Shown here in pieces: positions 1 to 51,795 of a DNA stretch of 51,894 nt. A program made the position numbers and the translations under genes. This DNA comes from a virus. Taxonomy: Duplodnaviria > Caudoviricetes. The number at the start of each line of letters is the position of its first letter. The stretch's first letter is position 1. The notes beneath the pieces are model-generated. The model saw only the letters and a list, made by a program, of their open reading frames with translations. It was not told the origin of the DNA and ran no database searches. The stretch lies in the IMG/VR virus record IMGVR_UViG_3300043419_001406, positions 1-51,894 of that record. One strand, written 5' to 3'.

Positions 1-59
1 ACCTCCATGGAGTGGAGCTTGATAGGGCCGGCGCAATTCAGGCAGAAGTGGTCAGCCAT
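1..59 (-). CDS. DnaC-like ATPase, 5' fragment truncated by window edge
   Basis: Identical to the start of 47615..48325 (MADHFCLNC). Confidence 0.8.
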   Translation of the reverse strand, partial: MADHFCLNCAGPIKLHSME

Positions 60-225
60 TGTTCTGCTCGTAGAGCTTGATCAGGGTCTTCTGGCTGAAG
101 GCCTTGAGCTTGCCATTGATGCACAGGTTCCAATACCGGATGTTGCCCTTGAGCCTAGGCTTGAGGGGCCTGACTACCGAGCCGTCCGGCAGGACGTAGT
201 ATTTGGTTTGTTCGATCTGTTTCAT
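52..225 (-). CDS. Small hypothetical protein, 57 aa (MKQIEQTKYYVLPDGSVVRPLKP...), NUMOD4-like start
   Basis: Manual translation; fills the gap between initiator and DnaC genes; frame conserved in copy 2. Confidence 0.7.
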   Translation of the reverse strand: MKQIEQTKYYVLPDGSVVRPLKPRLKGNIRYWNLCINGKLKAFSQKTLIKLYEQNNG

Positions 226-228
226 GGG

Positions 229-909
229 TCAGAAGCCTTTGGCGTGGTCGGCGTCGGTGTGGGCAGGCTTGGAAGGGCGTCCATAGACCCCCTTGGCGGC
301 CTTCACATGGACGGATTGCCACTCGTTGCGGCCCGAGGTCTCAAGGGCGTCGATGGAGGCGCTAGGATCGAAGCCAGACAGGTATTTGGCCTGCTTGACC
401 TGCCAGCTGAGGCTGGTGGTCCATTTGCGCTGACGCCTGAGGGCCACATAGTCGCTCCAAGCGTTCCAGAGGTCCTTGGGCCAATCCTTGATGATGGCCT
501 GAAACTCCTCCCCCGCCTGTATCTTATTCCTATCGTTTATATCATTAGTATCTATAGGGTGAAGTTTCTTTCGCCCCTCCCCTGAAGTTTTCTTCACCCC
601 CCCGGTGAAGTTTTCTTCACCCCCATCCAAGGCGAGCGTGACGATATCCCAGAGGACGCCGTTAGGGTCGCGCTTGATGTGGCCGGCAAGCTCCAGCTCC
701 CCGATCAGGAGCTGGATGTTCCGGTCAGAGCAGTTCAGGTACGCACCGAGCGTGGCCCGGGACGCGTAGCAGCCATTCTCGTTCGAGAGGATGTGGATGA
801 TGGACCAGAGGAGCTTGGCGTTCGTGCTGATCGTGACATCGCTGAATATCTTGGCGGGTATCCAGACGCCCTTGAACGGAAGGCTGGCCTTGCTAAGCAT
901 GTCGCTCAT
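229..909 (-). CDS. Replication initiator (N-terminal winged HTH, lambda O-like)
   Basis: HTH_36-like N-terminus (AKLLWSII...GCYASRATLGAYLNCSDRNIQLLIGELELAGHIKR), internal iterons, upstream of DnaC-like gene. Confidence 0.8.
   Translation of the reverse strand: MSDMLSKASLPFKGVWIPAKIFSDVTISTNAKLLWSIIHILSNENGCYASRATLGAYLNCSDRNIQLLIGELELAGHIKRDPNGVLWDIVTLALDGGEENFTGGVKKTSGEGRKKLHPIDTNDINDRNKIQAGEEFQAIIKDWPKDLWNAWSDYVALRRQRKWTTSLSWQVKQAKYLSGFDPSASIDALETSGRNEWQSVHVKAAKGVYGRPSKPAHTDADHAKGF
519..624. promoter_or_regulatory. Putative replication origin: three 23-bp-period iterons plus AT-rich tract
   Basis: TGAAGTTT at 560, 583 and 606; best unit GGTGAAG-TTTT-CTTCACC is palindromic; AT-rich 519-556. 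Confidence 0.75.
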
Positions 910-1136
910 CGTTTGTGGCTGGTCGAGCGTTCCTTCCAGCCCTCGGGCGTGTAGGCCCGGATGCTGGCCGTGTAGCCGTCAGGCTTCCAATCGAGCCTGA
1001 TGGTCACGTCCTCGTATTCGTAGGTGACGTTGCCTTCGCCCTGCATGATGTAGGGCGTGTCCTCGATGGCGTTGACGAGCTTGCTGTCAGCCCACGCGTC
1101 GAAGCCGAGACGCCGGATGTGTTCGGACGAGCTCAT
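906..1136 (-). CDS. Hypothetical protein
   Basis: ATGA overlap with the initiator gene; conserved in copy 2. Confidence 0.8.
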   Translation of the reverse strand: MSSSEHIRRLGFDAWADSKLVNAIEDTPYIMQGEGNVTYEYEDVTIRLDWKPDGYTASIRAYTPEGWKERSTSHKR

Positions 1137-1137
1137 G

Positions 1138-2079
1138 TCAGATGACGGCGATGCCGAAGTACTCGTCGTCGGTCATGCTCTGATCCAGCGACTGAGTGGC
1201 GATACGCATGATGCCGTTGGCGAGCATCTGGCGTCCTTCGATGATGGACTTCTGGCCGAACAGATAGGCGCGCGGAGCACCGGTATCCTTGCCGGCCACG
1301 ATGTACATGACCAGCGCGGGCCTGTTGTAATACGCGGACGCGAGCCCGGCGTACAGCGAAGCCTGAAGCTTCCACATGTCATCACGGGCCTTCTTGATGA
1401 CCTTGCCCATCGTCGAGCTCGGAGCCGTCTTGTAGTCGATGACCACGATGGGCTCCTTGTCGCTGTCGGGGACGAAGATGGCGTCGAGCTGGCCCTTGAC
1501 CACGCGCTCGATGACGAGCTGGTGGCTGTCGTCGTCCTTCATGTCCTTGGACCAATAGCCGGCGTAGTCGTCACGCATGCGATAGGTGGCCTTGGCCATG
1601 CCCTTGAGAGGGACCTCGGTGATGAGCTTGCCGGACTTGAGGTCGACCGCGGACTCAAGCACACGCTTGGCTCCTCCGGTCAGGGCCTCGGCCTGCTCCC
1701 ACAGGTTCTCGCCGATGATGGTCTTGCCGTCGGCCGCAAGGGATTGGAAGGACGCATGGAGCGCCTTGCCCTCCTTGGTGCGACGATCCACCTTCGGCAC
1801 CTTGATGAAGGAGTCGATGATGTCCTGCTTGCCGCTCATGATGGCGTGGAACGCGCTCCCGATGAGCATGTCATCGGTGGGCTCGTCCTGCTCGTCCACG
1901 ATCTTGCGGGCCGTGTGCATGCCATGGTCCAGAACCTTCTTGATGTAGCTCTGGTTGAGGCCTTCGTCGGACCGGTAGAACATCGGGACGATGGCCTGCG
2001 GGTTGGTGATGACCACGTCTGCGTCGTGGTAGTTTTCGGCGTCATTGATCGTGACGCGCGTGTTTTTCTGTTCGCTCAT
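1138..2079 (-). CDS. PD-(D/E)XK exonuclease, RecE/ExoVIII (DUF3799)-like
   Basis: IGSAFH, PKVDRRTKEGK, KGQLD...IDYKT and LQASLY motifs. Confidence 0.85.
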   Translation of the reverse strand: MSEQKNTRVTINDAENYHDADVVITNPQAIVPMFYRSDEGLNQSYIKKVLDHGMHTARKIVDEQDEPTDDMLIGSAFHAIMSGKQDIIDSFIKVPKVDRRTKEGKALHASFQSLAADGKTIIGENLWEQAEALTGGAKRVLESAVDLKSGKLITEVPLKGMAKATYRMRDDYAGYWSKDMKDDDSHQLVIERVVKGQLDAIFVPDSDKEPIVVIDYKTAPSSTMGKVIKKARDDMWKLQASLYAGLASAYYNRPALVMYIVAGKDTGAPRAYLFGQKSIIEGRQMLANGIMRIATQSLDQSMTDDEYFGIAVI

Positions 2080-2306
2080 TTTGTGTTGGGTTGGGAAATG
2101 TGTCCGTGCGGGATGCGCCCCGTCATGTCATTGACGAGATCCAGCAGGAGGCTCCTGCTGTTGTTGTCGTACGCGATGCCATTGACTTTGACCTTGGCCC
2201 CCATGCCGGCAAGCCGATAAGCCGCGAACGCGGCACGACGCTCATGGTCGGCCTCGACGTCTGCGGCCACGAGCTTGGGGCTGGGCCTGTTGTGCGTGAT
2301 GGGCAT
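2076..2306 (-). CDS. Hypothetical protein
   Basis: Tightly packed in the operon; conserved in copy 2. Confidence 0.75.
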   Translation of the reverse strand: MPITHNRPSPKLVAADVEADHERRAAFAAYRLAGMGAKVKVNGIAYDNNSRSLLLDLVNDMTGRIPHGHISQPNTK

Positions 2307-2307
2307 G

Positions 2308-2742
2308 TCAGTAGTCGGTGTACGAGTCCTTGGTCATCTTGCCGTTGTTCCACCATTGATGCCCCCTGAAGGACATGCCCGGCTCATCGTACTTGATGCG
2401 GAACTTCAGCTTGGGGAAACGCTCGGCGATCTTCTTCATGATGCCAAGAGGCGGACTCCATGCGCTGGAGAACACGAGGTCGAGACGCCATGAGCGCGGA
2501 CCATACGCCTTGTCTGCGTTGATAGGGCCATAGACATCCAGATCAGTAGGCTCCCACTTGGTGCCGAGGTTCTGGACGTTCCAATCGTACCAATCTTCGC
2601 GCTTGGGGTCGTAGTCGGGGAACAGCCGGCCGAAGGTGGCCTCCTGCCTCTCCGTCTTGCTGAGGATCAGGTCGAGGAGAGCGTCGAGCTCTTCGCGCGT
2701 GGCGGCGAACGCCACGAAGTCATTCATTACCCAATTAGGCAT
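2308..2742 (-). CDS. YubB/DUF1281 ferredoxin-like domain protein
   Basis: MPNW start, DWYDWNVQNLGTKW, FSSAWSPP and YDEPG family motifs. Confidence 0.8.
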   Translation of the reverse strand: MPNWVMNDFVAFAATREELDALLDLILSKTERQEATFGRLFPDYDPKREDWYDWNVQNLGTKWEPTDLDVYGPINADKAYGPRSWRLDLVFSSAWSPPLGIMKKIAERFPKLKFRIKYDEPGMSFRGHQWWNNGKMTKDSYTDY

Positions 2743-2923
2743 GGCCGTACTTAAGCTTGAGGGCAAGGTCGATGACCCGGGCGAGTTTCTTGCCGTTCGC
2801 TCCTTCGAGGTGCTTGTCGAGATGGGCTTTGATTTCCTTCTCGGCCTTGAGCATGTCCTTACGGAGCTCGGCGTGGCGTTCTACCAGCTGTTCAAGCTGG
2901 TCTAGTGTTTTGTCTTTTTTCAT
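2735..2923 (-). CDS. Small coiled-coil hypothetical protein
   Basis: First gene after the promoter at 2948-2975; conserved in copy 2. Confidence 0.75.
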   Translation of the reverse strand: MKKDKTLDQLEQLVERHAELRKDMLKAEKEIKAHLDKHLEGANGKKLARVIDLALKLKYGHA

Positions 2924-2947
2924 ATGCGTGATGCGTGTGAGGCAATG

Positions 2948-3021
2948 ACTTTGACCAGCATATGATCCATGTCAATGCGTTTGACCCATTATTTCGCCAG
3001 ATATCCGCAAGTAGTTGATAT
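2948..3021 (-). promoter_or_regulatory. Sigma70-like promoter TTGACA-N16-CAAAGT with upstream IHF-consensus box
   Basis: -35 at 2970-2975 and -10 at 2948-2953 are unchanged in copy 2 while the spacer diverges; TATCAACTACTTG matches WATCAANNNNTTR. Confidence 0.6.
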
Positions 3022-3036
3022 CCAATGAAATCAATT

Positions 3037-3112
3037 TGGTGGGCCCACCCGGACTTGAACCGAGAACCAATCCCTTATGAGGGGACTGCTCTAACCATTG
3101 AGCTATGGGCCC
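3037..3112 (-). tRNA. tRNA-Ile2 (CAT anticodon, reads AUA after lysidine modification); Met not excluded
   Basis: GGGCCCATAGCTCAATGGTTAGAGCAGTCCCCTCATAAGGGATTGGTTCTCGGTTCAAGTCCGGGTGGGCCCACCA; full cloverleaf, encoded CCA, ileX-like body. Confidence 0.9.
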
Positions 3113-3118
3113 TTCAAA

Positions 3119-3517
3119 TCACTCGCGCTCGCCGGTGCGTATTATGATCGGCCGACGCTCGCCCATGTATCCCACTCCGCGCACCACATTATAATCGACC
3201 CACTCCACGGCCGTCACCATGCGGTCATCTTCATCTTCATCGTCGAAGGCCTCGTAGAATACGGCCACCAGCTTCTCGTAGCTGTAGATGACATGGTGGC
3301 CATCCATATCCCATCCGACGATTGCCTCATCGAGCTGCTCGCGCGGCTCCAGCATTATCGCACCAGAGAGCTCATCGTTCTCGTCGATCACATCATCGAA
3401 CCATGTGCGGTGCTTGGCCGGCACATCGCTCCCAAGTTTGTCAGCCGGGCATGTGCTCACCCTAGCCTTGATTTTGTTGTTGTTCCTGCGTTTGTTGTTT
3501 TTAGGTTTGCGTGCCAT
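3119..3517 (-). CDS. Conserved phage hypothetical protein
   Basis: Basic N-terminus, C-terminal AVEWVDYNVVRGVGYMGERRPII; start set at MARKPK to avoid overlap with the divergent gene. Confidence 0.75.
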   Translation of the reverse strand: MARKPKNNKRRNNNKIKARVSTCPADKLGSDVPAKHRTWFDDVIDENDELSGAIMLEPREQLDEAIVGWDMDGHHVIYSYEKLVAVFYEAFDDEDEDDRMVTAVEWVDYNVVRGVGYMGERRPIIIRTGERE

Positions 3518-3547
3518 ACCGGACCAATTCAGATCAGAGCACACGCC

Positions 3548-4039
3548 ATGTCCATACCAATCTATGAGAGCCACGCGGATCGACGTCGACAGCAGGAGGT
3601 CATAGATTTTGTAGCGCTACATTGGAACGCCACTCCGGTAATCAGCCATCCCATGGCCCAGCATGACTACGCCCTATGTCGGCATGACCATAGCGACGAC
3701 CGCATGTACGCCCACGCCTACGCAGAGGTCAAGTGTCGCTCCGAACACCGGCAGGACTATTGGCTGTCCAAGGCCAAGTGGGACTACCTCATGGACCTAT
3801 CCAACGTCACCGACAGGCCAGCCTTCCTGATCGTCCATTGTGCCAAGACCGACAAGGTCAGGTATGCCAAGGTAGGCGTCGAACAATACTATCCCAAAGT
3901 CATCAGCGCCGGCCGTACCGACCGACCAGACGACCCCAAGGCCATCGAGGAAATGGTCGTCCTGCCAATGGCCCGTTTCCATAGCCTAGGATGCCTCAGG
4001 AGGCCAGATCAGGGTAAGGACGAGCTTACTACCGGTTAG
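3548..4039 (+). CDS. PD-(D/E)XK-like nuclease
   Basis: HDYAL...AEVKCR...LSKAKW motif; start MSIPIYES. Confidence 0.7.
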   Translation: MSIPIYESHADRRRQQEVIDFVALHWNATPVISHPMAQHDYALCRHDHSDDRMYAHAYAEVKCRSEHRQDYWLSKAKWDYLMDLSNVTDRPAFLIVHCAKTDKVRYAKVGVEQYYPKVISAGRTDRPDDPKAIEEMVVLPMARFHSLGCLRRPDQGKDELTTG

Positions 4040-4110
4040 CCTGTCCCAGCTCGTTCTGAGCCGATTGGGATTGAGCTAGGATCGATATTAACGCGTGACC
4101 CCCTAGTGGT

Positions 4111-4138
4111 AGGCTCCTAAAGAACGACCCCTTGTCAA
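4111..4138 (-). promoter_or_regulatory. Putative promoter TTGACA-N16-GAGCCT
   Basis: Perfect -35 in intergenic DNA with the same geometry as the other leftward promoters. Confidence 0.4.
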
Positions 4139-4206
4139 GTGGGTATCGATCAGATTGCCGGTCAGATGGACGGAATGATGAGCTTTGAGCTCATATTGGT
4201 TCATCA

Positions 4207-4234
4207 ATTAGACATAATGGATCTTGTGCGAAAT
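4207..4234 (-). other. XerC/XerD dif-like recombination site
   Basis: ATTTCGCACAA-GATCCA-TTATGTCTAAT, 11-6-11 layout; compare E. coli dif GGTGCGCATAA-TGTATA-TTATGTTAAAT; intergenic. Confidence 0.75.
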
Positions 4235-4259
4235 CAAATCCGACGTCCATCGGTCATGA

Positions 4260-4874
4260 TTAAGGGGGCGGGGGGGGTTGAAGCTCGTCGTCCGTCTTCT
4301 GTATCGACGGGTTGCCAGACGTACTGCTCGAATCCAAAAAATCCCCCTTAGGGTCTTTGGCCCAAGTGAGGAACTTTGCGGTTTCCTCCGGCTTGGACAC
4401 CTCAAATTGGCCGTCTATGACGATTTCCTTCGCGCTCTTCAGGTCCTTACCCCTACTTTTGAGGAGTTGGTCAAGGGATTTGTGGTCAATCGTGAATCTG
4501 TGCTCGACGACCGCCTGAGGCTGGTCTTGGAGGGCCTGAATCTTGTCTATGGCGATACCCATGGCGATTGGGATCTGGGAGACGTGCAGGCTGTCCAGCT
4601 CGTCGACCAGCTTCTGGCTGGCCTGCTGGACGAACGACTTCAGGTTCCGGACGGTGGCCGCCTTGAACTCGTCGTTAAGGCCGGTTGCCTCCGGCATCGA
4701 CCTTTTGATGGCCATGACGTTGTTCGGGGACATCCGCTGGAGCTTGGCGATCTCGTCGATCGGCCTGCCGGCCCTCAGGAGCTCCTCGACGGCTGCCCGA
4801 CGCTGCGGGTCGACGCGCGAGGCGTTGTGGTCCGAGCTCGGAGAGGTGTCCAAGCGTCCATTATCGTTTGACAT
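4260..4874 (-). CDS. HTH protein, probable terminase small subunit
   Basis: N-terminal HTH (VEELLRAGRPIDEIAKLQRMSPNNVMAIK), helical core, IAMGIAIDK...VVEHR. Confidence 0.55.
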   Translation of the reverse strand: MSNDNGRLDTSPSSDHNASRVDPQRRAAVEELLRAGRPIDEIAKLQRMSPNNVMAIKRSMPEATGLNDEFKAATVRNLKSFVQQASQKLVDELDSLHVSQIPIAMGIAIDKIQALQDQPQAVVEHRFTIDHKSLDQLLKSRGKDLKSAKEIVIDGQFEVSKPEETAKFLTWAKDPKGDFLDSSSTSGNPSIQKTDDELQPPPPP

Positions 4875-4910
4875 GGTTCCGTAGTGTCTTCGTTATTACG
4901 CCCATGTCAA
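4868..4910. promoter_or_regulatory. Overlapping divergent promoters (TTGACATGG...CCATGTCAA inverted repeat)
   Basis: Each TTGACA lies inside the ATG-TCA-A start of the opposite gene. Confidence 0.5.
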
Positions 4911-5401
4911 CGAAGGAGCTCATCAGCAAGGATCCACTCCGCGTTGATTTCACCGTCGACATAGAACCGATACGGACGACCCACCAGACCGACCTAAGGA
5001 TCCTCAAGACGCGCGACGGACGGCAGTTCATCGGCAAGACGTCGAAATCCAAGGTCAAGATTTGGGGGCAGGAGTTTGCCAAGCACATCCAGAAGCACAA
5101 GCCGGACAAGCCGCTCGAGGGCCCGCTTTGGCTCAGGATGACGTTCGCCTTCCCCCTGAACAAGGGCGACAGGCGCAAGAGCCTCCCGCATACGGTCAAA
5201 CCGGATTGGGACAACCTGCCTAAGACCATCTGCGACGTGCTGACCAAGGAAGGCTTCTGGCACGACGACTCTCAGGTGGTCTTCGGTCAGGTGGTCAAGT
5301 GCCGCCACCACAAGCCGTTCGTCGGCATCCGCGTCTGTCCGGCTCCTTGGATCGACGAGGCCTTCGTCGAAGCCCTTTACGCCTCACACCATGCAGACTG
5401 A
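4904..5401 (+). CDS. rusA: RusA family Holliday junction resolvase
   Basis: KPDWDNLPKTICDVL...WHDDSQVV catalytic motifs. Confidence 0.9.
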   Translation: MSTKELISKDPLRVDFTVDIEPIRTTHQTDLRILKTRDGRQFIGKTSKSKVKIWGQEFAKHIQKHKPDKPLEGPLWLRMTFAFPLNKGDRRKSLPHTVKPDWDNLPKTICDVLTKEGFWHDDSQVVFGQVVKCRHHKPFVGIRVCPAPWIDEAFVEALYASHHAD

Positions 5402-5870
5402 GAAGGACATAATAGCGCGGTTCGGATTGCCTAGGGACGAGATGGTCCGGTTCCGTCGCGACAACCTCAAGGCCGGCGAGGATTGGAACCGGCTCAGACA
5501 GGGCGAGAAGCCCGAGCACATGTGCCCGATCGTCTTCACCGAGGCCGGCACCCGCAAGGTGTACGAGAAGTTCGGCATCTGCGACAAGCCTCAGGAGTCT
5601 TGGCCGAAGCTCGCCATCGTATCGCGGACGAATTGGCCGAACCACCGGATCATGACTGTCCTCATTGACGGCAAGTCCCACAACGTCATAGTAGCCGACG
5701 CAAGGCTGTTCTACCCCGGCGCCGAAATCCTCGTCGACCGCAAGGGGAGCAAGCTCATATGCTCGCTCCGCCCGGACAGCCCACAGAAACTTTTCACAAC
5801 CATCAGGCGCAAACATGAAGAAGCCATACAACTCAAACAAGGAAACCAGCAGCAAGTCCGAGAGGGCTGA
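5391..5870 (+). CDS. Hypothetical protein
   Basis: Overlaps rusA stop; coding-like codon bias. Confidence 0.75.
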   Translation: MQTEKDIIARFGLPRDEMVRFRRDNLKAGEDWNRLRQGEKPEHMCPIVFTEAGTRKVYEKFGICDKPQESWPKLAIVSRTNWPNHRIMTVLIDGKSHNVIVADARLFYPGAEILVDRKGSKLICSLRPDSPQKLFTTIRRKHEEAIQLKQGNQQQVREG

Positions 5871-5985
5871 ATCCGCCCGCTACGAAGCCTACGAGCGCAA
5901 GCAGCCCGGCTACGCCAAGTCCGACAAGTCCGACAAGGGCTCGTCATGTGGCAAGGGCTGGAAGGGCTACAAGGGCTGCAAGTAA
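5815..5985 (+). CDS. Small basic protein, 56 aa (MKKPYNSNKETSSK...CGKGWKGYKGCK)
   Basis: Manual translation; TAA abuts the next ATG; AAGGGCT repeats. Confidence 0.6.
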   Translation: MKKPYNSNKETSSKSERAESARYEAYERKQPGYAKSDKSDKGSSCGKGWKGYKGCK

Positions 5986-6786
5986 ATGCCCGACGAGCCG
6001 GACTTAATCAAGGGCAGCGAGGAGGCCTACCGACAGGTAAGGCAGGCCCAGCTTGATCGAGCCCGGGCGAACGATACGCCGGAGGACGCCAGCCCGGATA
6101 CCGCGGCTTCGATGGGCGCGCTCTTCAGGAAGCAGGAGGACGCGGCCCAGACCGCCGCCGTCCACTATAACGCGGCGATCAACCTTCAGAACTACGTCCA
6201 GCAACAGCGCGAGTACTTCGACGACAAATCGGACGCCATGTCGCTCAAGGGGATGCTTGAGCGCGGCGGCGAGCGTAAAGGCGGCGTCGTAAGGGTCTCC
6301 GACGGATTGGCCGGAATGCTGGCGGCCGGCGGCGAAAGAAAAGGGGGCATGGTAAAGGTGTCGGACGGGCTGGCCGGAATGCTGGCCGCTGGCGGACAAA
6401 AAACAGGACCTGAGCTCAAGATCGGAGCCAGCTTCAAGGAGCAGCTCGAAGCGGTCAGGTGGGGTGCTAGGATGCAAGCCCTTCGCATCGCAGGCAGAGA
6501 GTACGCGAGTCAGCGAAAAATAAAAAACGATGGCGGCCTGTCGGCCGCCAGACAGCCGTACGCCGGCGTAAACTTCTTCGGCCACAGGTCCCAATTCACG
6601 AGGGGCGCCGTAACGTTCACGCCAATGGATTTTTCAAACGGGGTTCCGATAGTCGGGGTGCACAAGGCCGTCGAGGACGGATGGGCGCCCGTGGGTGCCG
6701 GCTATTCGGCGGCCATGAAGAGAGCCCTGCTTCAGATGGGCCGAAATTACAGGAGTACGCTTCCGCTGTACGGAAACAGCTACTAA
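5986..6786 (+). CDS. Hypothetical protein with internal 21-aa tandem repeat
   Basis: ORF abuts terL. Confidence 0.8.
   Translation: MPDEPDLIKGSEEAYRQVRQAQLDRARANDTPEDASPDTAASMGALFRKQEDAAQTAAVHYNAAINLQNYVQQQREYFDDKSDAMSLKGMLERGGERKGGVVRVSDGLAGMLAAGGERKGGMVKVSDGLAGMLAAGGQKTGPELKIGASFKEQLEAVRWGARMQALRIAGREYASQRKIKNDGGLSAARQPYAGVNFFGHRSQFTRGAVTFTPMDFSNGVPIVGVHKAVEDGWAPVGAGYSAAMKRALLQMGRNYRSTLPLYGNSY
6250..6402 (+). repeat. 63-bp coding tandem repeat, about 2.4 copies
   Basis: GGERKGGVVRVSDGLAGMLAA / GGERKGGMVKVSDGLAGMLAA / GGQK; units start at 6265, 6328 and 6391. Confidence 0.85.
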
Positions 6787-8427
6787 ATGTCGTTCGATCA
6801 GGTCAACATAGGGACGCGGGAAGCCCCGCTGATGGTGACGAAGCATCCCATCATACACACTCCGTCCCGCGAAGACCTGATAGACTTGGCGCGCGAGATA
6901 GGTCCAGAAGGCGTCGTCGAGGTGTTGAAGCGCCGCGAGGAAAAAATAAAGGCCGAGGTAGCCGACCCATACAGGCATGGATTCGAGCCGGATCATTGGC
7001 GCGAGGCCGACGGCCTGCTCATGTCCGGAAACGAGCTGCTTATCATGGGCGGAAACCGAGCCGGTAAGACCGAGTACGCGGCCAAGCGGATCATGCAGCT
7101 TCTCTGCACTAGGCCTAATTCGCGAATATGGTGCCTGCACACGACCTCGCAGACATCCATCCAGATGCAACAGGCGGTCATCTGGAAGTACATGCCGCCG
7201 GAGTTCAAGAACGCCAAGAAGACCAAGGTAACGAACATCCAATACTCGCAGAAGAACGGCTTCACCGACGCGACGTTCGTCCTGCCAAACCGGAGCCAAT
7301 GTTTCTTCATGAACTACGGTCAGGAGAAGAAGGTCATCGAAGGTGGCGAGCCGGACATGATCTGGTGCGACGAGCTTGTCCCTCCTGATTGGGTTGAGAC
7401 GTTGCGCTACCGACTAGTGACTAGGTCGGGCAAGATGCTCCTGACCTTCACCCCTATCACGGGCTATACGCCTGTCGTCAAGGAGTACGTCTCCGGGTGC
7501 CGCTTCAAGAAGACCCTCAAGGCGGACCTGCTTCCTGACACGCAGAACGTTCCCAACATACCCAAGGGCCACATGCCCTACACGGCCTCCTGCCTGAAGG
7601 GTTCCGCGAACGTTATCTGGTTCCATTCGATACTGAACAGCTACTCCCCGTTCGAGCAGATCAAGCTGGCCCTCAGGGGCCGCGGGCCGTACGAAGTCAA
7701 GATACGCGCGTACGGATGGGCCGAGTCCCTGTCTGGCTCACAGTTCCCAAGGTTCGGAGAGCCGAACATAATACCGGCCGACAAGATACCCAGCGAGGGC
7801 ACGAACTACATGGTCGTCGATCCGGCCGGAGCTAGGAATTGGTTCATGTGCTGGATGCGGGTAGATAAGAATGGGAACAAGTATGTGTACCGAGAATGGC
7901 CCGACATCAGCATGGGTGAGTGGGCTCTCAACGGCGAGAAGCCGGACGGCAAGCCCGGGCCCGCGCAACGCCAAGGAGCCGGCATGGGCGTCATCGAGAT
8001 CAAGGAGCACATACGCTCGCTTGAAGCCGGCGAAGAGATTTTCGAGAGGTACATCGACCCTAGGGCTGGGAACGCCACGGCCATAAACAAGGAGGGCGGA
8101 GTGACCCTGATACAACTCCTAGAGGAAGACCCGAACCCCATGTGGTTCACTCCGGCGGCCGGCCTCAGGCTCGAAGAGGGCGTTGGGATCCTCAACGATT
8201 GGTTCTCCTACGACCAGAACAACCCCCTCAGCGCCGTCAATCAGCCAAAGCTTTACATATCCGAAGACTGCATAAACACGATCTGGTGCCTGCGCGAATG
8301 GACAGGCCTCGACGGAGAGAAGGGCGCCAGCAAGGACCCCGTCGATTGCATGAGGTATCTCGCCGTCATGCAACCGGGTTACTCGGACGACAAGACGTTC
8401 AAGGCGGTCGGAGGAGGAAGCTATTGA
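6787..8427 (+). CDS. terL: Terminase large subunit
   Basis: Walker A GGNRAGKT, Walker B IWCDE, LLTFTP motif, nuclease motifs VVDPAG and KDPVDCMRY. Confidence 0.95.
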   Translation: MSFDQVNIGTREAPLMVTKHPIIHTPSREDLIDLAREIGPEGVVEVLKRREEKIKAEVADPYRHGFEPDHWREADGLLMSGNELLIMGGNRAGKTEYAAKRIMQLLCTRPNSRIWCLHTTSQTSIQMQQAVIWKYMPPEFKNAKKTKVTNIQYSQKNGFTDATFVLPNRSQCFFMNYGQEKKVIEGGEPDMIWCDELVPPDWVETLRYRLVTRSGKMLLTFTPITGYTPVVKEYVSGCRFKKTLKADLLPDTQNVPNIPKGHMPYTASCLKGSANVIWFHSILNSYSPFEQIKLALRGRGPYEVKIRAYGWAESLSGSQFPRFGEPNIIPADKIPSEGTNYMVVDPAGARNWFMCWMRVDKNGNKYVYREWPDISMGEWALNGEKPDGKPGPAQRQGAGMGVIEIKEHIRSLEAGEEIFERYIDPRAGNATAINKEGGVTLIQLLEEDPNPMWFTPAAGLRLEEGVGILNDWFSYDQNNPLSAVNQPKLYISEDCINTIWCLREWTGLDGEKGASKDPVDCMRYLAVMQPGYSDDKTFKAVGGGSY

Positions 8428-8431
8428 TACC

Positions 8432-8650
8432 ATGCTAAACCTACCCGCCAACACCCCTCCCCTGCTCCGTCTGGCCGAAGCTTCGGTCGTATTCAACCTG
8501 AGCAAGTCGACCCTGCTACGCCTAAGGCGGAGCGGATCCGTGAGAACATACAAGACCAACGGAGGTCAGTATATGTTCTACCGGGACGACATCATAGATT
8601 TCATAACCAAGAACACCAATGGCCTCGATAAAGTACAAGAATCACCCTAA
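8432..8650 (+). CDS. MerR/excisionase-like HTH_17 DNA-binding protein
   Basis: LLRLAEASVVFNLSKSTLLRLRRSGSVRTYKTNGGQYMF. Confidence 0.8.
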   Translation: MLNLPANTPPLLRLAEASVVFNLSKSTLLRLRRSGSVRTYKTNGGQYMFYRDDIIDFITKNTNGLDKVQESP

Positions 8651-10871
8651 TCAGCGCGACCAGCTGGCATTCCACAACAGGGTGCCGGACATACAGTTCC
8701 TGCTGAACGAATATCAGCGCTCGGCTTATCACGGCACCATGGTGTCGAAGATGAACTATGCCGACGATATTCGTCTCGCCCGCTGGCCCGGACAGACCGA
8801 CGACGGCAAGAAGCACAGCTACGCCCGCCCGGACGGAGATCCCGCGTTCCCCTTCGAGGGCGCGTCAGACGTTCGCATCAGGCTGGTCGACCGCCTCGTG
8901 CGTGAGCAAAAGGCCCTGCTAATGCACTCGTTCAAGGCATGCACCCTCAAGGTGGGCGGCACCGAGATCGGAGACACCATGGCGGCCGCGTCGGCCACGA
9001 ACCTGATGCGCTGGCTGATCGAGACCAAGATGAAGCTTGAGCTTCACAAGGAGGCCGAGCTCCACGCCGACTACATGCTAAATTACGGATGGTCCGTGGT
9101 GCAGGTCACTTGGGACCGCCAGATGGGCAAGCGCACCCAGACCATCAGCTTGGAAGAGTTGGCCATGGCAGCCGAGCAGGCCCGCATGCAGAACTCCGGA
9201 GACTCCATGATGGCCAATCTGGTCGCCGCGATTCAGTCCGGAAAGGACGACTACGCCGTTCAGCTCATGACGGCCCTCCTTCCGAACATCAAGGAGCCTG
9301 ACCTCAGGAAGTGCGTCAAGTCGATGCGCGAGACGGGTACCGGCTACATCGACGAGCCGTACGTCGCCCGCAACCTCCCCGTCGTTTCGGCCCTGAAGCC
9401 ATATGACGAGGTGTGCTTCCCGCCAGAAACCAGCGACCTTCAGAAGGCCCGCGTCATCTTCCGGCGTCAGTACGTCACAGAGGTCGAGCTTCGCTCAATG
9501 GGCGAAGTAGACGGATGGGATAAAGAGTTCGTCGAAAGCGCCAGCCGCACGATGGGAAATCATTACTACTTCAATGACCCCAATCTGGTTCCGACCACGA
9601 CGATGTTGAACTCCAACATCCAGCGCGGCGACAACCTTGTGGAGCTCGTATGGGCCTACTATCGCCAGCTGGACAAGGATAACATCCCGGCAATCTATTA
9701 CACAGTCTTCTGCCCTCAGGTCGGCAGCGAGCTGTACGCGAAGCAGGAGCTTCTGAACTACGCTCACAACATGTACCCGTTCGTTGAGCTCCGGATGGAG
9801 ACTTCGCGGCGACAGGTCACGGAATCCCGCGGAATCCCGGAGATATGCAAGACCGAGCAGGAGGAGGTCAAGGCCCAGCACGACGCCATCCGTGACCGCA
9901 CGGCCATCGAAGTGCTTCCGCCCGTCAAGGTGGTCAAGAGAATAGGAGCCCTGAATAGGATCGCACCCGGTCAGGTCCTGCCCGTCACCAACAAGGATGA
10001 CTACACTTGGCTCGAGCCCCCTGCCGGCCGTGCCGAGTACGCCTTCCAAGTCATCGAGCAGGTCGAAAAGAACCTTGGCAATTACTTCGGCTTCCAAGTC
10101 GGAGAAAAGCCCATCGACCCCGTCAAGATCCAGATGATGAAGCAGCTTCAGGTTGATAATTGGCTGATGTTCTGGACGCGCTGCTTCAGCCAGATGTTCT
10201 CCCTGTGCCTTCAGTTCATGGAAGAGGAAGAGGTGGTCCGCATCACAGGATCCCCGCTTAAGCAGGGCCTTTCGGACATCCACTCGCAGTATGACCTGAA
10301 CGTAAGGTTCGACGTCAGGGACGCCGACCCGGACTTCGTCCGCGAGAAGCTCAAGTCCATCGTCGAGACTGTCGTTCCGTTGGACGTTTCCGGGGTCATT
10401 GACCGCGATAAGCTGGTCAAGCTCGTCATCGAGTCGATCAGCCCGGACGCCGCCCGCGAGCTCGTCATCGACAAGGCAACCGCGTCCCAGAAGCTCTACA
10501 AGGACGTCACGAACGACATCGCCCTGATGATGCTCGGCAACGAGGCCCAATACGTCGAGAACGACCCTCAGGCCTCCTCGAAGCTTCAGTTCGCTCAGGA
10601 CATCTTGGCGAAGAACCCGAAGGCACAGCAGGCCGCTCAGGGGGACCGCATCTTCCAGATACTGCTGGAGAACTACATGAAGCAGCTTCAGTTCTCCGTC
10701 GAGCAGGAGAAGAACAAGCAGATCGGCCGAGTCGGCGTTTCGCCGGCATCGGAAAAGATCCAAGAGGAGTTCAGCAAGGCCCGAGAAGAGCAGGCCGCCG
10801 CCGCCGCGGAGACGCAGGCCCCCGCCCCTCAGGTCGAGACCCAGCCTCCTCCCGCCCAGATGATGATCTAA
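8619..10871 (+). CDS. Portal protein
   Basis: 750 aa after terL; FPFEGASD and SRGIPE motifs; long helical C-terminus. Confidence 0.88.
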   Translation: MASIKYKNHPNQRDQLAFHNRVPDIQFLLNEYQRSAYHGTMVSKMNYADDIRLARWPGQTDDGKKHSYARPDGDPAFPFEGASDVRIRLVDRLVREQKALLMHSFKACTLKVGGTEIGDTMAAASATNLMRWLIETKMKLELHKEAELHADYMLNYGWSVVQVTWDRQMGKRTQTISLEELAMAAEQARMQNSGDSMMANLVAAIQSGKDDYAVQLMTALLPNIKEPDLRKCVKSMRETGTGYIDEPYVARNLPVVSALKPYDEVCFPPETSDLQKARVIFRRQYVTEVELRSMGEVDGWDKEFVESASRTMGNHYYFNDPNLVPTTTMLNSNIQRGDNLVELVWAYYRQLDKDNIPAIYYTVFCPQVGSELYAKQELLNYAHNMYPFVELRMETSRRQVTESRGIPEICKTEQEEVKAQHDAIRDRTAIEVLPPVKVVKRIGALNRIAPGQVLPVTNKDDYTWLEPPAGRAEYAFQVIEQVEKNLGNYFGFQVGEKPIDPVKIQMMKQLQVDNWLMFWTRCFSQMFSLCLQFMEEEEVVRITGSPLKQGLSDIHSQYDLNVRFDVRDADPDFVREKLKSIVETVVPLDVSGVIDRDKLVKLVIESISPDAARELVIDKATASQKLYKDVTNDIALMMLGNEAQYVENDPQASSKLQFAQDILAKNPKAQQAAQGDRIFQILLENYMKQLQFSVEQEKNKQIGRVGVSPASEKIQEEFSKAREEQAAAAAETQAPAPQVETQPPPAQMMI

Positions 10872-10874
10872 CCC

Positions 10875-11141
10875 ATGACACCAGAATCCAACAAATACGT
10901 CCAAAACGCATTCGGCGCCACGGACCCGAACGCATCCGAACTGTTCAAGGCCGTGCTAGTCGTCATTGACTTCGCCCTCCAGATAGAGATGGGCAAGGTC
11001 ATGTCTCCGGCCACCACGGGAGAAGCTAGGGTTCACTCAGCCGGTAGGCTTGATGCGCTGAACGAGATTCTCGTGCATCTCCAAGACCGCCGGGACGCCG
11101 CTCTTAAGCCGAAAACGGGTCAAACCAGCGCACAGCAGTAG
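10875..11141 (+). CDS. Small head-associated hypothetical protein
   Basis: Position between portal and scaffold; RVHSAGRLDAL. Confidence 0.75.
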   Translation: MTPESNKYVQNAFGATDPNASELFKAVLVVIDFALQIEMGKVMSPATTGEARVHSAGRLDALNEILVHLQDRRDAALKPKTGQTSAQQ

Positions 11142-11217
11142 AGTGTATTGCTTTGCTGAATACGTCGACCATCAATCCTTACGTCTCTGCGGACGTTAAA
11201 CGCTGACCTCCATACAT

Positions 11218-12174
11218 ATGGAAAACGACCAACAGCCACAAGCTGATCTCGAACTTGGGAACGAGATTAATCCCCCCATGAACGAAAACGTTAGGCAAGC
11301 CGAACCTAACGCAAAAGAAAGCCCGGAAGATTTTTTCTCCCGGGTGCTGTCTGGCGGCCAGATAGAACAAACCACCGGCGTGGAGTCGCCGGAAGCGCCC
11401 GAGGCAGTAATGCCGGAGGCAACCACGGAAGCCGAAGATGCCGAGCAACAGGTTGACGATAGCACGGAACGCCCCACCACAGGCGTCCAAAAGCGACTCG
11501 CCAAGCTGACGGCCCTGAGGCGGGAAGCCGAGGAGAAGGCTAGCAGGCTAGAACAGGAAGTCGCAGAACTCAAGCGATCCAAGGCCGTCGTCCGCACAGA
11601 TGCGCAAAATCCATTCGCGCAGCTCGAAAGCGTGGGCGATATTCAGGCCGAGTTTGAGAAACAGCGAAAGATCCGACTATTTTGCGAGCGCTACCCGGAC
11701 GGATACTACCCTGAAGGTGAAGGCGAGCCGGTGTCGAAGGAGAACATAGCCAAGGCGAAAGTCAGGGCCCTCCAAGCCATCGAGGAAGAACTTCCCAAGC
11801 AGTTGATGTATCTCGAAGAAAAGGACAAGGCCAAGAAGTTCGCCCGAAGCGAGTTCAGCTGGCTCAATGATCCCACGGATGACAGGACGACCAAGGTCAA
11901 GGCCTTCGTTGATGCCATGCCCGAGATCAAAAGGTTCCCGGACTACGAGATATACGCTGCCCACATGGTCAATGGCATGATGAGCTACAAGGCTCAGAAG
12001 GCCGTCGCCCAGAATACTCAGAGGAGGGTTCCGGTGCAACCCAGCATGAGCAGCGCACCCGCGCCGCGGCCGCAGAAAAGCGACCCGGTTCAGTACGCCT
12101 CTAGCATGGAGCGCTACCGCAAGAGCGGGACGATCGACGATCTGGCAGATGTGTTCAAAAGCAAGTTCATCTAA
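11218..12174 (+). CDS. Capsid scaffolding protein
   Basis: Acidic disordered N-terminus, GVQKRLAKLTALRREAEE coiled coil, directly upstream of the capsid gene. Confidence 0.8.
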   Translation: MENDQQPQADLELGNEINPPMNENVRQAEPNAKESPEDFFSRVLSGGQIEQTTGVESPEAPEAVMPEATTEAEDAEQQVDDSTERPTTGVQKRLAKLTALRREAEEKASRLEQEVAELKRSKAVVRTDAQNPFAQLESVGDIQAEFEKQRKIRLFCERYPDGYYPEGEGEPVSKENIAKAKVRALQAIEEELPKQLMYLEEKDKAKKFARSEFSWLNDPTDDRTTKVKAFVDAMPEIKRFPDYEIYAAHMVNGMMSYKAQKAVAQNTQRRVPVQPSMSSAPAPRPQKSDPVQYASSMERYRKSGTIDDLADVFKSKFI

Positions 12175-22772: not shown

Positions 22773-23708
22773 ATGGAAGACGAAGATATCTCATCCCTGA
22801 TAAGCCAAATGGCGTCTCAGGGCCCGACTCAGTACGGAGCCACTTCGTCTGCCGTGCCCGGCAGGCAGCCTCGGCCGGCGCCGGTAAGTTTTGACGTCGC
22901 TAGGCAGATGTACGACGACGACTCGATGGCTCTGGCCGCTGTTTACGACACCAGCGGACGTGCCTCCGCGGCGCAACAGGCATATCTGGATCAGCAAAGG
23001 AAGATGCAGGACCCGAACTTTCGGGCTCAGCAGTTCTACATGAGCACGGGCAACTTGGCCGGAGCGATCCAGATAGGTAAGTCAAAAGGTTCGGCCCTGT
23101 TCAAGATGGGGTCCGAGATCAACATGGGTAGGGCAGGAACCTTCATGATGGCTCCTCAAGGCGAAATGGAGGCCAAGACGCCCGACGGCAGGTCGATCAG
23201 AATACCGGCATACATGGTGGCCGCAAAGAACGGCATCAACGTCCTTCCGTTCACGGGTGGGGACGAAAACGCGGACGCTTACAAGAGCACGATCATGAAC
23301 GCCGAGAGGGCATTCAGCCTGCTCGATGAGCTAGAGGATCTGTATAATGACAGCGGATACATCGGAACGATGTCGCCCACCGCCCGCGCCGCAAAAGCCG
23401 TCCAAATCGAGTCAATGCTGACTCCGCTTGTCCTCCAGACGCTCTCCGGAACAAAGAGCCTAGCTAGCACATCCGAGAAAGAGCTTGAGCTCATTCAGGG
23501 CGGAGTGCCTAGGGCTGCCAGCTCCATGATGTGGAATCGAAGGTCCAACGAGATCCTGAAGTTGCGCAAACTGAGGACCGATATTCAGGGCGTAATTTAT
23601 CGCTCATCCAAGCTCAATGGTATTGAATTGATCCCGAAGAAGCGCCAATCTTCTGGCGCCGGTGGGGCGGCCCAGACCGTCTCCATTCCCGGAGTCATAC
23701 CTGAATAA
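22773..23708 (+). CDS. Putative ejection protein
   Basis: TAATG-coupled to the giant gene; helical-bundle C-terminus. Confidence 0.55.
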   Translation: MEDEDISSLISQMASQGPTQYGATSSAVPGRQPRPAPVSFDVARQMYDDDSMALAAVYDTSGRASAAQQAYLDQQRKMQDPNFRAQQFYMSTGNLAGAIQIGKSKGSALFKMGSEINMGRAGTFMMAPQGEMEAKTPDGRSIRIPAYMVAAKNGINVLPFTGGDENADAYKSTIMNAERAFSLLDELEDLYNDSGYIGTMSPTARAAKAVQIESMLTPLVLQTLSGTKSLASTSEKELELIQGGVPRAASSMMWNRRSNEILKLRKLRTDIQGVIYRSSKLNGIELIPKKRQSSGAGGAAQTVSIPGVIPE

Positions 23709-45115: not shown

Positions 45116-45835
45116 TTAGAACGGGACTTCGTCGCTGGTGGGCTCGGGGCGGGTGATGCCCGGGCTGCTCTTGGCCTTGATGTAGTCGTCGAGGGCGGCC
45201 CTCAGGATCACATCGGCTTCAGAGATGCCCTTGTCGCCGTAGGGCTTGGGCTGCCATTCCTTGGCGTACCAATCGAGGCTGTTGGCCGGCAGGGAGCCAA
45301 GCGTCTGGCCCTTGTTCTTGCCGAAGTGGAGGGCGACGTTACGCCACTCGCCGGCGACGGCGGACGGAGCCTGCTTGGGCTTGGCCGGAGCGTCGTAGGA
45401 GGCCTTGGCATGGGGGACGTAGGTGTTCGTCTCGACGGCGGCCTGACCATCGTCATCCTCTGCGGCCAGATTTGCGATGGCGCTCAGGGCGTACCGCCTC
45501 AGGTAGCTGTAGATCGAGCCGGCTTTCTGAGCGTCAATCTTGGCCGGGTCCACCGGAAGATGGGCGACGAAGTCGAGCTGGTCTCCGCTGACGTGGAGCA
45601 GGATGGTCTTGATGCCGACCTGTCCGCTGTAGGAGGACGGGTGCTGGATGATGGTCCATCCGTGCTTGGCGAAGGTGCCCTTGATGGCTTCAATGTGCGA
45701 ACCGAGGGTCGCATACTTATTGCCGTAGTGAGGGTTCTTGGCGTCGAACTTTGGCGGCTGAACTTCGCTGATAGCCTTGACCAGAGCCGCGGAAGCGACG
45801 GCGCTGAGCTTGTTGTTGGGTTCTTGGTATTCCAT
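45116..45835 (-). CDS. erf: ERF family single-strand annealing protein
   Basis: KNPHYGNKYATL, AQKAGSIYSYLRRYAL and EDDDG motifs; C-terminal FGKNKG domain and DEVPF tail. Confidence 0.9.
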   Translation of the reverse strand: MEYQEPNNKLSAVASAALVKAISEVQPPKFDAKNPHYGNKYATLGSHIEAIKGTFAKHGWTIIQHPSSYSGQVGIKTILLHVSGDQLDFVAHLPVDPAKIDAQKAGSIYSYLRRYALSAIANLAAEDDDGQAAVETNTYVPHAKASYDAPAKPKQAPSAVAGEWRNVALHFGKNKGQTLGSLPANSLDWYAKEWQPKPYGDKGISEADVILRAALDDYIKAKSSPGITRPEPTSDEVPF

Positions 45836-47502: not shown

Positions 47503-47618
47503 TTGTTTGCCTCCAATAGTTTGATGACATCTTCGAGTCGTCCAATGATTAGGTAAAGCAAGGCAATCACAACGCCCCAGCAAAACAGGCTCATATCAAA
47601 CGGCGGCTTCTCGCTCAT
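47499..47618 (-). CDS. 39-aa single-TM peptide (MSEKPPFDMSLFCWGVVIALLYLIIGRLEDVIKLLEANK)
   Basis: Manual translation; ATGA overlaps at both ends. Confidence 0.6.
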   Translation of the reverse strand: MSEKPPFDMSLFCWGVVIALLYLIIGRLEDVIKLLEANK

Positions 47619-48325
47619 AGCATCTCTGGGGTCTCAGCTCCGGGCGCCACGCCGACGACGCTGAACAAGTCCTTGTCCTTGATCCGCGCGAGCAAGGCGT
47701 TGCCAACCTCCTTGTCGTGGAAGCGTTCGGCTAGGCTCGCGCCGGTGTGGTTGGTCGTGATGACTGTGGCTCGCTTATGCTGGGCCCGCTGGTCGATGAT
47801 GGCGAACAGCACGGAGGCCATGCGTTCGGTCATCTTCTCCTTACCCAAGTCATCCAACCCGAGCACCTCGGCTTCGATCAGGGCCTTCATGGCCTGATCC
47901 CAGCGCTCTTTGCCCCAAGCTGCGGCCATGTCCGCTTCAAGCTCGAACATGGTCATCACCTTCATGGAGATGCCAAGGCCCTTGAGCCGGTTGCGGATGA
48001 ACCACATGCACCTCGTCTTGCCCTTGCGGGTGACGCCGTGGATGAGCAGGGACTTCTTCTGGGTCTCCGGGTGCCATGTCGTCGCGAGCGCGGCGAGCAC
48101 GGGAGGAAGCCTCTTGGGATCCGTGTCCTTGAACAGCTCCGGGCAGCCGTCGGTGTTCGACGGCATGTGGACATGGAACTCCTTGGCCCGCTCGGCCTCA
48201 GCGATGGCCACGCATGCGTCCTTGGAGCAGTACTTGGCCGGCGACAGGTGGATGACGCGTCCGGCCACCTCCATGGAGTGGAGCTTGATAGGGCCGGCGC
48301 AATTCAGGCAGAAGTGGTCAGCCAT
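47615..48325 (-). CDS. DnaC/IstB-like AAA+ helicase loader
   Basis: N-terminal Cys cluster, Walker A GVTRKGKT, Walker B LGLDDLG, IIDQR and ITTN motifs. Confidence 0.88.
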   Translation of the reverse strand: MADHFCLNCAGPIKLHSMEVAGRVIHLSPAKYCSKDACVAIAEAERAKEFHVHMPSNTDGCPELFKDTDPKRLPPVLAALATTWHPETQKKSLLIHGVTRKGKTRCMWFIRNRLKGLGISMKVMTMFELEADMAAAWGKERWDQAMKALIEAEVLGLDDLGKEKMTERMASVLFAIIDQRAQHKRATVITTNHTGASLAERFHDKEVGNALLARIKDKDLFSVVGVAPGAETPEML

Positions 48326-48491
48326 TGTTCTGCTCGTAGAGCTTGATCAGGGTCTTCTGGCTGAAGGCCTTGAGCTTACCGTTGATGCACAGGTTCCAAT
48401 ACCGGATGTTGCCCTTGAGCCTAGGCTTGAGGGGCCTGACTACTGAGCCGTCCGGCAGGACGTAGTATTTGGTTTGTTCGATCTGTTTCAT
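48318..48491 (-). CDS. Small hypothetical protein (copy 2)
   Basis: Homolog of 52..225. Confidence 0.7.
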   Translation of the reverse strand: MKQIEQTKYYVLPDGSVVRPLKPRLKGNIRYWNLCINGKLKAFSQKTLIKLYEQNNG

Positions 48492-48494
48492 GGG

Positions 48495-49384: not shown

Positions 49385-49385
49385 A

Positions 49386-50554: not shown

Positions 50555-50555
50555 A

Positions 50556-51171: not shown

Positions 51172-51284
51172 ATGCGTTATGCGTGTGAGCCAATGACTTT
51201 GACCAGCGTGTGAGCTGTGTCAATGTATTTGACCAACTATTCACTCAGATATCCGCAAGTAGCTGATATCCAATGAAATCAATT

Positions 51285-51360: not shown

Positions 51361-51366
51361 TTCAAA

Positions 51367-51765: not shown

Positions 51766-51795
51766 ACCGGGCCAATTCAGATCAGAGCACACGCC

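Follow-up and report, generated by a model that had tools for sequence, protein, structure and literature searches.

The question raised by this locus is why a tailed phage in which no integrase is recognised should carry, between two of its genes, a 28-mer resembling dif, the chromosomal site of host XerCD. The window analysed here, i.e. the whole stretch of 51,894 nt, is the complete viral record IMGVR_UViG_3300043419_001406 (Duplodnaviria; Caudoviricetes). Exploitation of XerCD by IMEX and by dif-type double-jelly-roll phages is described in several papers (PMC9966536; PMC6744903; PMC9226527; PMC12715192). The reports of Xer exploitation that we found concerned filamentous phages, tailless double-jelly-roll phages, plasmids and genomic islands, and none concerned tailed phages.

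The dif-like site and its surroundings

A first-pass annotation of this DNA had described an intergenic 28-mer on the minus strand with 11-6-11 geometry, and its sequence, coordinates and position in a gap all check out. The site occupies positions 4207-4234 and reads 5' ATTTCGCACAA GATCCA TTATGTCTAAT 3'. By direct reading on the minus strand it consists of an XerC-type arm, ATTTCGCACAA (4234-4224), a central region of 6 bp, GATCCA (4223-4218), and an XerD-type arm, TTATGTCTAAT (4217-4207). The two arms are complementary at 7 of 11 positions and partly palindromic toward their inner ends, as expected of a Xer core, and the spacer measures 6 bp in the record and in every relative found, within the 6-8 bp of such cores. 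Its assignment as a dif-like Xer core site is based on sequence, on conservation in relatives and on the identity of its arms to single-copy sites of Verrucomicrobiota.

Against a dif consensus that serves as a rough guide, the site shows 4 mismatches and is the sole 28-mer of the record with six or fewer; approximately 0.0025-0.003 sites of this quality are expected per genome of this size, a figure of little weight, as the consensus string used had 0 occurrences in the text of PMC2731167. Comparative evidence, namely the retention of position and arms and the identity of the arms to the dif of a host clade, is at the sequence level a stronger test than a consensus score.

The 28-mer lies inside a 220-bp gap between two convergent genes, a plus-strand gene with its stop at 4039 and a minus-strand gene of 204 codons' worth of protein (4260-4874; 204 aa), the first of the leftward block, whose stop is 25 nt before the site. 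Two short ORFs overlapping the gap have a codon-position GC unlike that of coding sequence. The XerC side of the site is thus the 3' end of the 204-aa gene, while its XerD side bears a second conserved non-coding block, CTTGACA.GGGGTC (4126..4139, minus strand), approximately 70 nt past the XerD-type arm, whose columns are invariant or nearly so among 47 distinct sequences. This block is possibly a candidate -35 box for the next leftward genes; a full sigma-70 match was not found there. Between the 204-aa gene and the site, the consensus scan alone marks a short terminator-like hairpin (4240..4253, minus strand) with a T-rich tail entering the XerC-type arm; two such hairpins were found in the site region where 1.0 was expected. 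Neither a tRNA nor an Rfam family nor a sigma-70 promoter was supported as an explanation of the site region.

The 204-aa gene shows the codon-position GC of this genome's real genes, and its product combines an N-terminal helix-turn-helix (HTH) with long helices and a Pro-rich tail. Mean column identity in the alignment of this protein is 73%. Comparison with Pfam returned weak HTH matches only. The structural model is poor overall (pLDDT 61) and better in the HTH (81-85); a Foldseek search of it against PDB had no match at E<=0.001, and its top rows (E 0.4-2.3) are generic HTH folds, among them FtsK gamma, small terminases and a serine-recombinase HTH. The convergent plus-strand gene (3098..4039) encodes a putative endonuclease of the PDDEXK_14 family (Pfam E 5e-15; phrog_7141), with the domain at approximately 3557-3986 (residues 154-296). 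It was found by tblastn in closer relatives only, on the strand opposite to the leftward block, and more distant relatives have at this position a homologue of the 151-aa minus-strand ORF (3119-3574) alone. The PDDEXK_14 gene may therefore be an inserted nuclease gene.

Gene content of the phage genome

CheckV completeness of the record is 100%. Its ends overlap (1-300 with 48267-48566 at 96%, 888-1187 with 49136-49435 at 93%), indicating a unit genome of approximately 48.25 kb in which the site is present once. Positions 1-3646 and 48249-51894 are diverged copies of one 3.6-kb stretch; the contig wraps round the unit and joins two strain variants, so that the tRNA-Met, RecE-like and O-like genes appear twice.

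The absence of tyrosine and serine recombinases and of parAB, claimed in the first-pass annotation, was borne out, since PF00589, PF00239, PF02195 (ParB_N) and PF13614 (AAA_31, ParA-type) had no match in the record at E<=1. PF00589 was likewise absent from all 10 other near-complete site-bearing viral records (five complete family members and five non-family records). No repressor or lysogeny module was recognised in the record, which has many small ORFs without a match. The RecE/Erf system that had also been proposed is present: a RecE-like PD-(D/E)XK exonuclease is encoded in the leftward gene block (1138-2079) and an Erf-like single-strand annealing protein on the minus strand (45116..45835). 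Together with RusA (4868-5401, plus strand), these form the phage's own homologous-recombination set, which would generate multimers. The leftward block also holds four tRNAs and a DnaC-like loader (47615-48325).

A lambda O-like replication initiator is encoded at 229..909 on the minus strand (phrog_678, 270; HTH_36). Inside its gene lie iteron-like direct repeats of approximately 19-23 nt, TGAAGTTT(T)CTT(T)C.CCCC (repeat family D3; 560-624, with a copy at 48826-48890), which likely represent the replication origin, about 3.6 kb from the dif-like site. The initiator, the iterons and the DnaC-like loader imply a circular replicative form. Signs of circularity in relatives, i.e. permuted assemblies and terminal repeats in three of five, make a circular replicon plausible, and from its gene content the genome looks like that of an actively recombining phage replicating as a circle.

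The podovirus label and the position near terS given in the first-pass annotation found no confirmation. TerL (6787-8427, plus strand) and a major head protein are the only head or packaging genes recognised. A small terminase gene (terS) was not identified in the record, and TerL starts 2.55 kb from the site. The 266-aa ORF directly upstream of TerL is a positional candidate for the small terminase, with no family match; two tandem 63-nt units of 75% identity lie inside it (6250-6375, plus strand). A further observation concerns a single open frame of 6436 aa (23708-43018, plus strand), which makes up 37% of the genome and has real-gene codon-position GC. Searched against Pfam in three pieces it gave no match, and its relatives have homologous stretches at 25-34% identity.

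Conservation of the site in viral relatives

A scan of viral contigs for both arms with any spacer returned 15 stretches. When the neighbouring 204-aa protein was used instead, 63 viral loci were found at 60-99% identity, many of them in contigs of 47.5-50 kb; the gene occupies many different contig positions, and the assemblies are therefore circularly permuted. A site with at most three arm mismatches follows the 204-aa gene at 30-60 nt, always in one orientation, in 54 of the 63 loci, and the other nine stop at the 204-aa gene match or no more than 24 nt after it. The metagenome scan added 46 further loci, 42 of which have the site.

For the alignment of relatives 55 stretches were collected, 49 of them distinct, and after two short ones were dropped 47 distinct sequences remained. 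The mean majority fraction among these is 0.94 in the arms (14 of 22 columns invariant), 0.65 in the spacer (no column invariant) and 0.56-0.59 in the flanks; the runner-up 11-6-11 window of the alignment reaches 0.83 and is located in coding sequence. The 54 loci and the record together display 14 spacers, among them GATCCA, CATGAA, TAGTCA, CAGGTA, CGGGGA and CGGGCG. This is the pattern of conserved arms and variable spacer that had been predicted for relatives. Judging from the alignment, the 28-mer is not a chance match, and purifying selection on a dif mimic appears clear.

The closest relatives are 0.86-0.91 identical to the record upstream of the site and 0.82-0.88 downstream, with no abrupt change, and a drop of identity at the site is confined to two loci (L034 and L357). 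The lack of a similarity breakpoint thus gives no sign of natural exchange there. A megablast of positions 1-12000 against isolated phages gave no match.

It was also observed that contig ends cluster just past the 204-aa gene: among the 63 loci, 18 stop within 800 nt downstream, compared with two within 1000 nt upstream, and the record's own right end maps 561 nt past the site. The cluster may reflect an assembly-graph break at the boundary between conserved and variable sequence, or a physical end.

The bacterial counterpart and the predicted host

Bacterial genomes, one per species, were scanned using a pattern constrained at arm positions 4-11 and 18-28 only, and at least 120 stretches matched. 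Among the 80 titled matches listed, 66 belong to Verrucomicrobiota (including Opitutales, Opitutaceae, Puniceicoccales and Coraliomargarita), seven to Kiritimatiellota or PVC and seven to other phyla. Of the 120 matches listed, 32 start with ATT like the phage site, at positions left unconstrained by the pattern, and their arms are hence identical to those of the phage at 22 of 22 positions. The peculiarities of this host clade, CACAA in the XerC-type arm and TCTAAT ending the XerD-type arm, are present in the phage arms. Median GC of the 32 exact-arm bacterial loci (among the matches listed) is 0.589, against 0.580 for the phage record.

The bacterial site is single-copy in four of five genomes tested. 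In the class of genome G001 it was found in 56 of 401 genomes, single-copy in all 56, with 0 for a reversed-pattern control. On the 5.5-Mb scaffold of G001 the site lies at 827,637, where the GC skew switches: sampled values run from +0.17 to +0.32 up to 740 kb, fall to +0.008 at 800-820 kb, reach -0.09 at 835-855 kb and are negative on to 3.8 Mb, which places the site at the replication terminus. XerD scored above the curated cut-off in four of five genomes, and each of the five also has a second Xer-like paralogue, so the candidate hosts possess XerC/XerD genes together with a cognate terminus dif. In terms of position and copy number, these bacterial sites are chromosomal dif sites. Predictions of dif for Opitutus were made by Kono 2011 (PMC3025954).

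None of the 120 bacterial loci listed has similarity to the phage (tblastn with 310 ORF segments at 1e-5, plus blastn), so the match is not due to a captured fragment or a binned phage contig. The comparison with candidate-host dif suggested by the first-pass annotation had a clear outcome, as the arms match the dif of one coherent clade. The identity of all 22 arm positions predicts an Opitutales-type Verrucomicrobiota host, and the site does serve as the host-prediction handle that had been envisaged. The runs that contain at least 0.22 of the sampled words are labelled as freshwater or freshwater-sediment metagenomes (four runs from three studies).

The central region is where phage and host part. 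On the basis of distinct 28-mers, host spacers among the matches listed follow T 0.91, A 0.87, T/A, A 0.67, T/C, A 0.87. Counted over the 120 stretches listed, they are AT-rich, and the most frequent are TATACA (28) and TATATA (20), followed by TAAACA, TATGCA, TAAATA and TATATC (9 each). The spacers of the phage family keep A at positions 2 and 6 only, and one of the 14 is also bacterial among the matches listed. GATCCA shares four of six positions with TATACA, while CGGGCG and CGGGGA differ from it at five and four of six, respectively, with the arms kept.

The same site in other phage groups

Among the 15 viral contigs with exact arms, one (L005; GC 0.405) has no similarity to the record; its genes include a T7-type TerL (phrog_38, 3e-113) and a tail-fibre N-terminus like that of T7. 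When viral contigs were scanned with a degenerate pattern, at least 118 stretches matched, and 127 site-bearing viral loci were compared among the matches listed. Of the loci listed, 55 have tblastn matches to ORFs of the record; 36 of these possess a homologue of the 204-aa protein, and the remaining 19 show one to three distant matches only, mostly to TerL at 33-45% identity. The other 72 have no match to the record: 53 cluster as the L005 group, others form groups of 4, 3, 2, 2 and 2, and six are singletons. One singleton (L261) shares genes with bacterial dif flanks, is probably bacterial and was excluded from the phage counts. Two further loci (L324 and L334) were considered as carriers of dif flanks owing to weak tblastx matches and proved to be plain family fragments.

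A T7-like RNA polymerase (PF00940) was detected in all three complete L005-group members tested, and each of five near-complete non-family records has one site and no integrase. In the L005 group the site is intergenic: TerL and a small gene lie on one side of it and the early region, at the RNAP-side genome end, on the other. The small genes flanking it in L005 have no match in Pfam or PHROGs. Among 40 listed loci with a visible TerL, the site is in one orientation in 21 and in the other in 19, which suggests repeated gain or inversion of the 28-mer. The group lacks the 204-aa protein, and the site is hence independent of that protein. Six of its 19 spacer types equal bacterial spacers among the matches listed, so that integration may suit this group better. 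Four spacers not known from hosts, TATGTA, GATCCA, GATTCA and TAGTCA, are common to both phage groups. In the Puniceicoccales phage P8625, the one cultured phage compared, no such site was found at up to three mismatches, which makes the trait common but not universal.

Search for integrated copies

Integration at the chromosomal dif had been offered as one option for this phage, with junction reads at the site as a way to detect it. The search sets were samples, consisting mostly of metagenome-assembled genomes (MAGs), and no lysogen and no junction was found in them; many relatives, moreover, have spacers incompatible with host dif. Phage genes beside the bacterial dif were found at 0 of 120 loci listed, and none of the 56 site-bearing class genomes has two sites. 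The 204-aa protein has a match in one of 401 class genomes, at 32% identity; this genome (G007) was rejected as a lysogen, as it contains no related prophage and has no site within 40 kb of the match. T7-like RNAP was found in 0 of 401 class genomes, with a model that does match phage records.

The first 20 kb of the record, compared with 137 genomes of G003's family, matched only tRNA-Met and one distant phage contig of 11.5 kb (G493:C45), a distant relative with a TerL of 59% amino acid identity and a degenerate site. That site is unlike the canonical dif of the same genome, and the contig is thus uninformative with regard to the host. In the metagenomes, none of the 41 loci with at least 150 nt past the site shows a junction; all run into phage DNA, identified by tblastn to the record in 34 and by blastn to family loci in seven. 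No joints at the site were seen in the contigs of four runs, one of which crosses the site unbroken. A 31-nt unitig with a depth of 85 (against 13.7 for the phage contig) falls on 4206-4234 with two differing letters and could be host dif with TATACA.

Proposed role and alternative explanations

That the 28-mer is a host-type XerCD site is, on the evidence of its arms, highly probable. Its binding and recombination by XerCD, and the reaction that matters to the phage, are inferred. Our best overall explanation, to which we give about the same weight as to all others combined, is a host dif mimic selected for XerC/XerD binding and used chiefly for phage-phage recombination. The 28-mer would mimic the dif of an Opitutales-type host, with selection keeping both arms for host XerC and XerD; lambda-like O/DnaC-type replication and the Erf, RecE and RusA genes would yield multimers of the circular replicative form; and host XerCD would recombine the copies of the phage site, interconverting monomers and multimers in the way that psi and cer do for plasmids. 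The specific role, XerCD recombination between the phage's own copies, is proposed tentatively, at slightly under an even chance, and we rank it above integration at dif, and integration above binding alone.

That no integrated copy was found in the sets searched, together with the intact arms that many relatives keep around spacers nearly unrelated to those of host dif, favours self-recombination over integration. Strand exchange with dif requires homology of the central region, a condition that the phage's own copies, being always identical, satisfy, and this favours either phage-phage recombination or binding alone. According to the appendix of PMC8340030, the Xer core in a minicircle made from pSDC153 by Xer recombination has GATCCA as its central region. 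We take this core to be psi, the multimer-resolution site of plasmid pSC101. Other considerations weigh against self-recombination. During lytic growth it is multimers that are packaged, so that resolution alone would bring no obvious gain. The lack of recognised partition genes lowers the odds of a plasmid prophage, the main setting for dimer resolution. T7-like phages replicate as linear DNA, and the site of the L005 group is therefore hard to explain by resolution of circles. The recurrence of four non-host spacers in unrelated groups is not predicted by self-recombination with free spacer drift, and no analogue of the accessory sequences of cer or psi was identified at the site.

The principal competitor is the view that the site is the attP of a tailed IMEX, i.e. 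that the phage is temperate and is integrated by XerCD at host dif, possibly through a single strand-pair exchange as in VGJphi and TLCphi. Like IMEX, it combines a dif-like candidate attP, with arms identical to host dif at 22 of 22 positions, with the lack of an integrase or other recombinase of its own. The site of the T7-like group, with TerL on one side and the RNAP-side genome end on the other, falls in what is presumably the interval in which marine T7-like phages carry int, and six of 19 spacer types there equal listed bacterial spacers. Central regions of IMEX attP sites are typically only partly homologous to dif (PMC4246890; PMC9226527), and GATCCA matches TATACA at four of six positions. 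Against this, the spacers CGGGCG and CGGGGA of some relatives show hardly any homology to those of hosts, the genome has no recognised repressor or lysogeny module, and the integrated state at dif between two dif-like sites was not seen in the samples, mostly MAGs: phage similarity was absent from all 120 listed dif loci and a second copy from all 56 genomes, the single 204-aa match in 401 class genomes (32% identity) lies outside any prophage of this family, the first 20 kb found only tRNA-Met and the distant 11.5-kb contig in 137 genomes, and 41 of 41 metagenome loci continue into phage DNA, with contigs of four runs free of joints. We thus consider integration unlikely, although it comes second in our ranking.

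Recombination may also not be the purpose of the site at all. If it bound XerC/XerD without recombination, it could act as a dif decoy affecting SMC-type unloading, decatenation by Topo IV or stopping of FtsK. It is background to this idea that dif is a major Topo IV site and that Wadjet-like defence complexes cut small circular DNA. XerD unloads SMC at the terminus (PMC12322038, citing Karaboja 2021), and published work deals with how FtsK stops at XerCD-dif (PMC2800217) and with where Topo IV binds and acts along the E. coli genome (PMC4865107). Selection on both arms and on their spacing with a largely free spacer would suit a decoy, as would the free orientation in the T7-like group (21 versus 19 of 40 listed) and the occurrence in lytic-looking phages, T7-like ones included, where neither integration nor circle resolution is obviously useful. 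Yet A is kept at spacer positions 2 and 6 in phages and hosts and the length is strictly 6 bp, as expected of a catalytically competent site, and it is in Bacillus and E. coli, not in Verrucomicrobiota, that these mechanisms are known; binding alone is accordingly rated improbable. A broader form, in which dif mimicry is general in verrucomicrobial tailed phages, including lytic T7-like ones, and acts without recombination, seems to us quite improbable too. XerCD on phage DNA could then mark a 'terminus', unloading or blocking chromosomal SMC or Wadjet-like complexes or recruiting Topo IV for the unlinking of phage circles during replication, and the site would be a host-factor decoy, neither an attachment nor a resolution site. 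By far the least credible alternative is that the 28-mer merely resembles dif and is bound by a phage protein as its operator or recognition site, for example by the adjacent HTH protein, whose gene is always directly upstream in the family, or by a terminase, whose genes are within a few kb of the site in several groups. The same arms occur, however, in unrelated phages without the 204-aa HTH protein and constitute the single-copy terminus site of bacterial chromosomes, and their asymmetry is of the dif type.

Relation to known systems and significance

The phage site has the same 11-6-11 arrangement as Verrucomicrobiota dif, with arms 22/22 identical in 32 of 120 listed sites and A at spacer positions 2 and 6. 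It differs in its setting, which is a 48-kb phage genome and not a replication terminus, the putative phage origin being only 3.6 kb away, and in its spacer, GATCCA, which is not of the TATACA/TATATA type and varies widely among phage relatives. The psi site of pSC101 and the cer site of ColE1 are likewise dif-like cores with a non-dif central region on extrachromosomal replicons without a recombinase of their own. Both depend on accessory sequences of approximately 160-180 bp, to which PepA binds along with ArcA or ArgR, whereas no accessory element was recognised at the phage site, and the replicon here is a tailed phage without partition genes. IMEX, such as CTXphi, VGJphi and TLCphi of Vibrio and the NO16-like double-jelly-roll phages, likewise lack an integrase and carry a dif-like site for host XerCD. 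Those are filamentous or tailless and integrated at dif, while the present case is a tailed dsDNA phage of 48 kb with both arms intact, of which an integrated copy was found in none of the sets searched. A single site on a tailed phage is also known from Cre-loxP of phage P1, but P1 encodes Cre, while this phage encodes no such recombinase and would rely on the enzymes of its host; loxP serves phage-phage recombination, by which terminally redundant DNA is cyclised and plasmid dimers are resolved.

A dif mimic thus occurs in a 48-kb tailed family as well as in other groups, one of them T7-like and unrelated to it; all are without integrase, and the host phylum indicated is the same throughout. 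Should XerCD act on these sites, genome maintenance or lysogeny in tailed phages would draw on a recombinase of the host, a mode invisible to lifestyle predictors based on integrases. In addition, clade-specific dif arms provide a sequence-only host handle for uncultured phages, in a phylum, Verrucomicrobiota, with very few cultured phage-host pairs.

Additional dif-like sites in bacterial genomes

Two bacterial cases deviate from the single canonical site. In one MAG, two contigs (L108 and L155) each have the exact XerC-type arm followed by TATACA, and they differ only at the XerD-type end (TAGT and TAAT). No phage genes were found near either, and the pair may stem from two strains binned together or from duplication of dif. 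Of the 12 dif-like sites in the Opitutales genome G002, one is canonical, with TATACA as its spacer, and eleven read CGCACAA-N6-TTATGTC(T/C)A(G/T)T, with GA(A/C)C before CGCACAA in the four that were fetched (L202 and L205-L207). At least three of them (L202, L205 and L206) are at mid-position in a repeated element of approximately 1 kb, which has no ORF of 80 aa or more in L205 and no match in an Rfam search. Judging from this arrangement, the repeats of G002 are possibly a family of small Xer-dependent elements.
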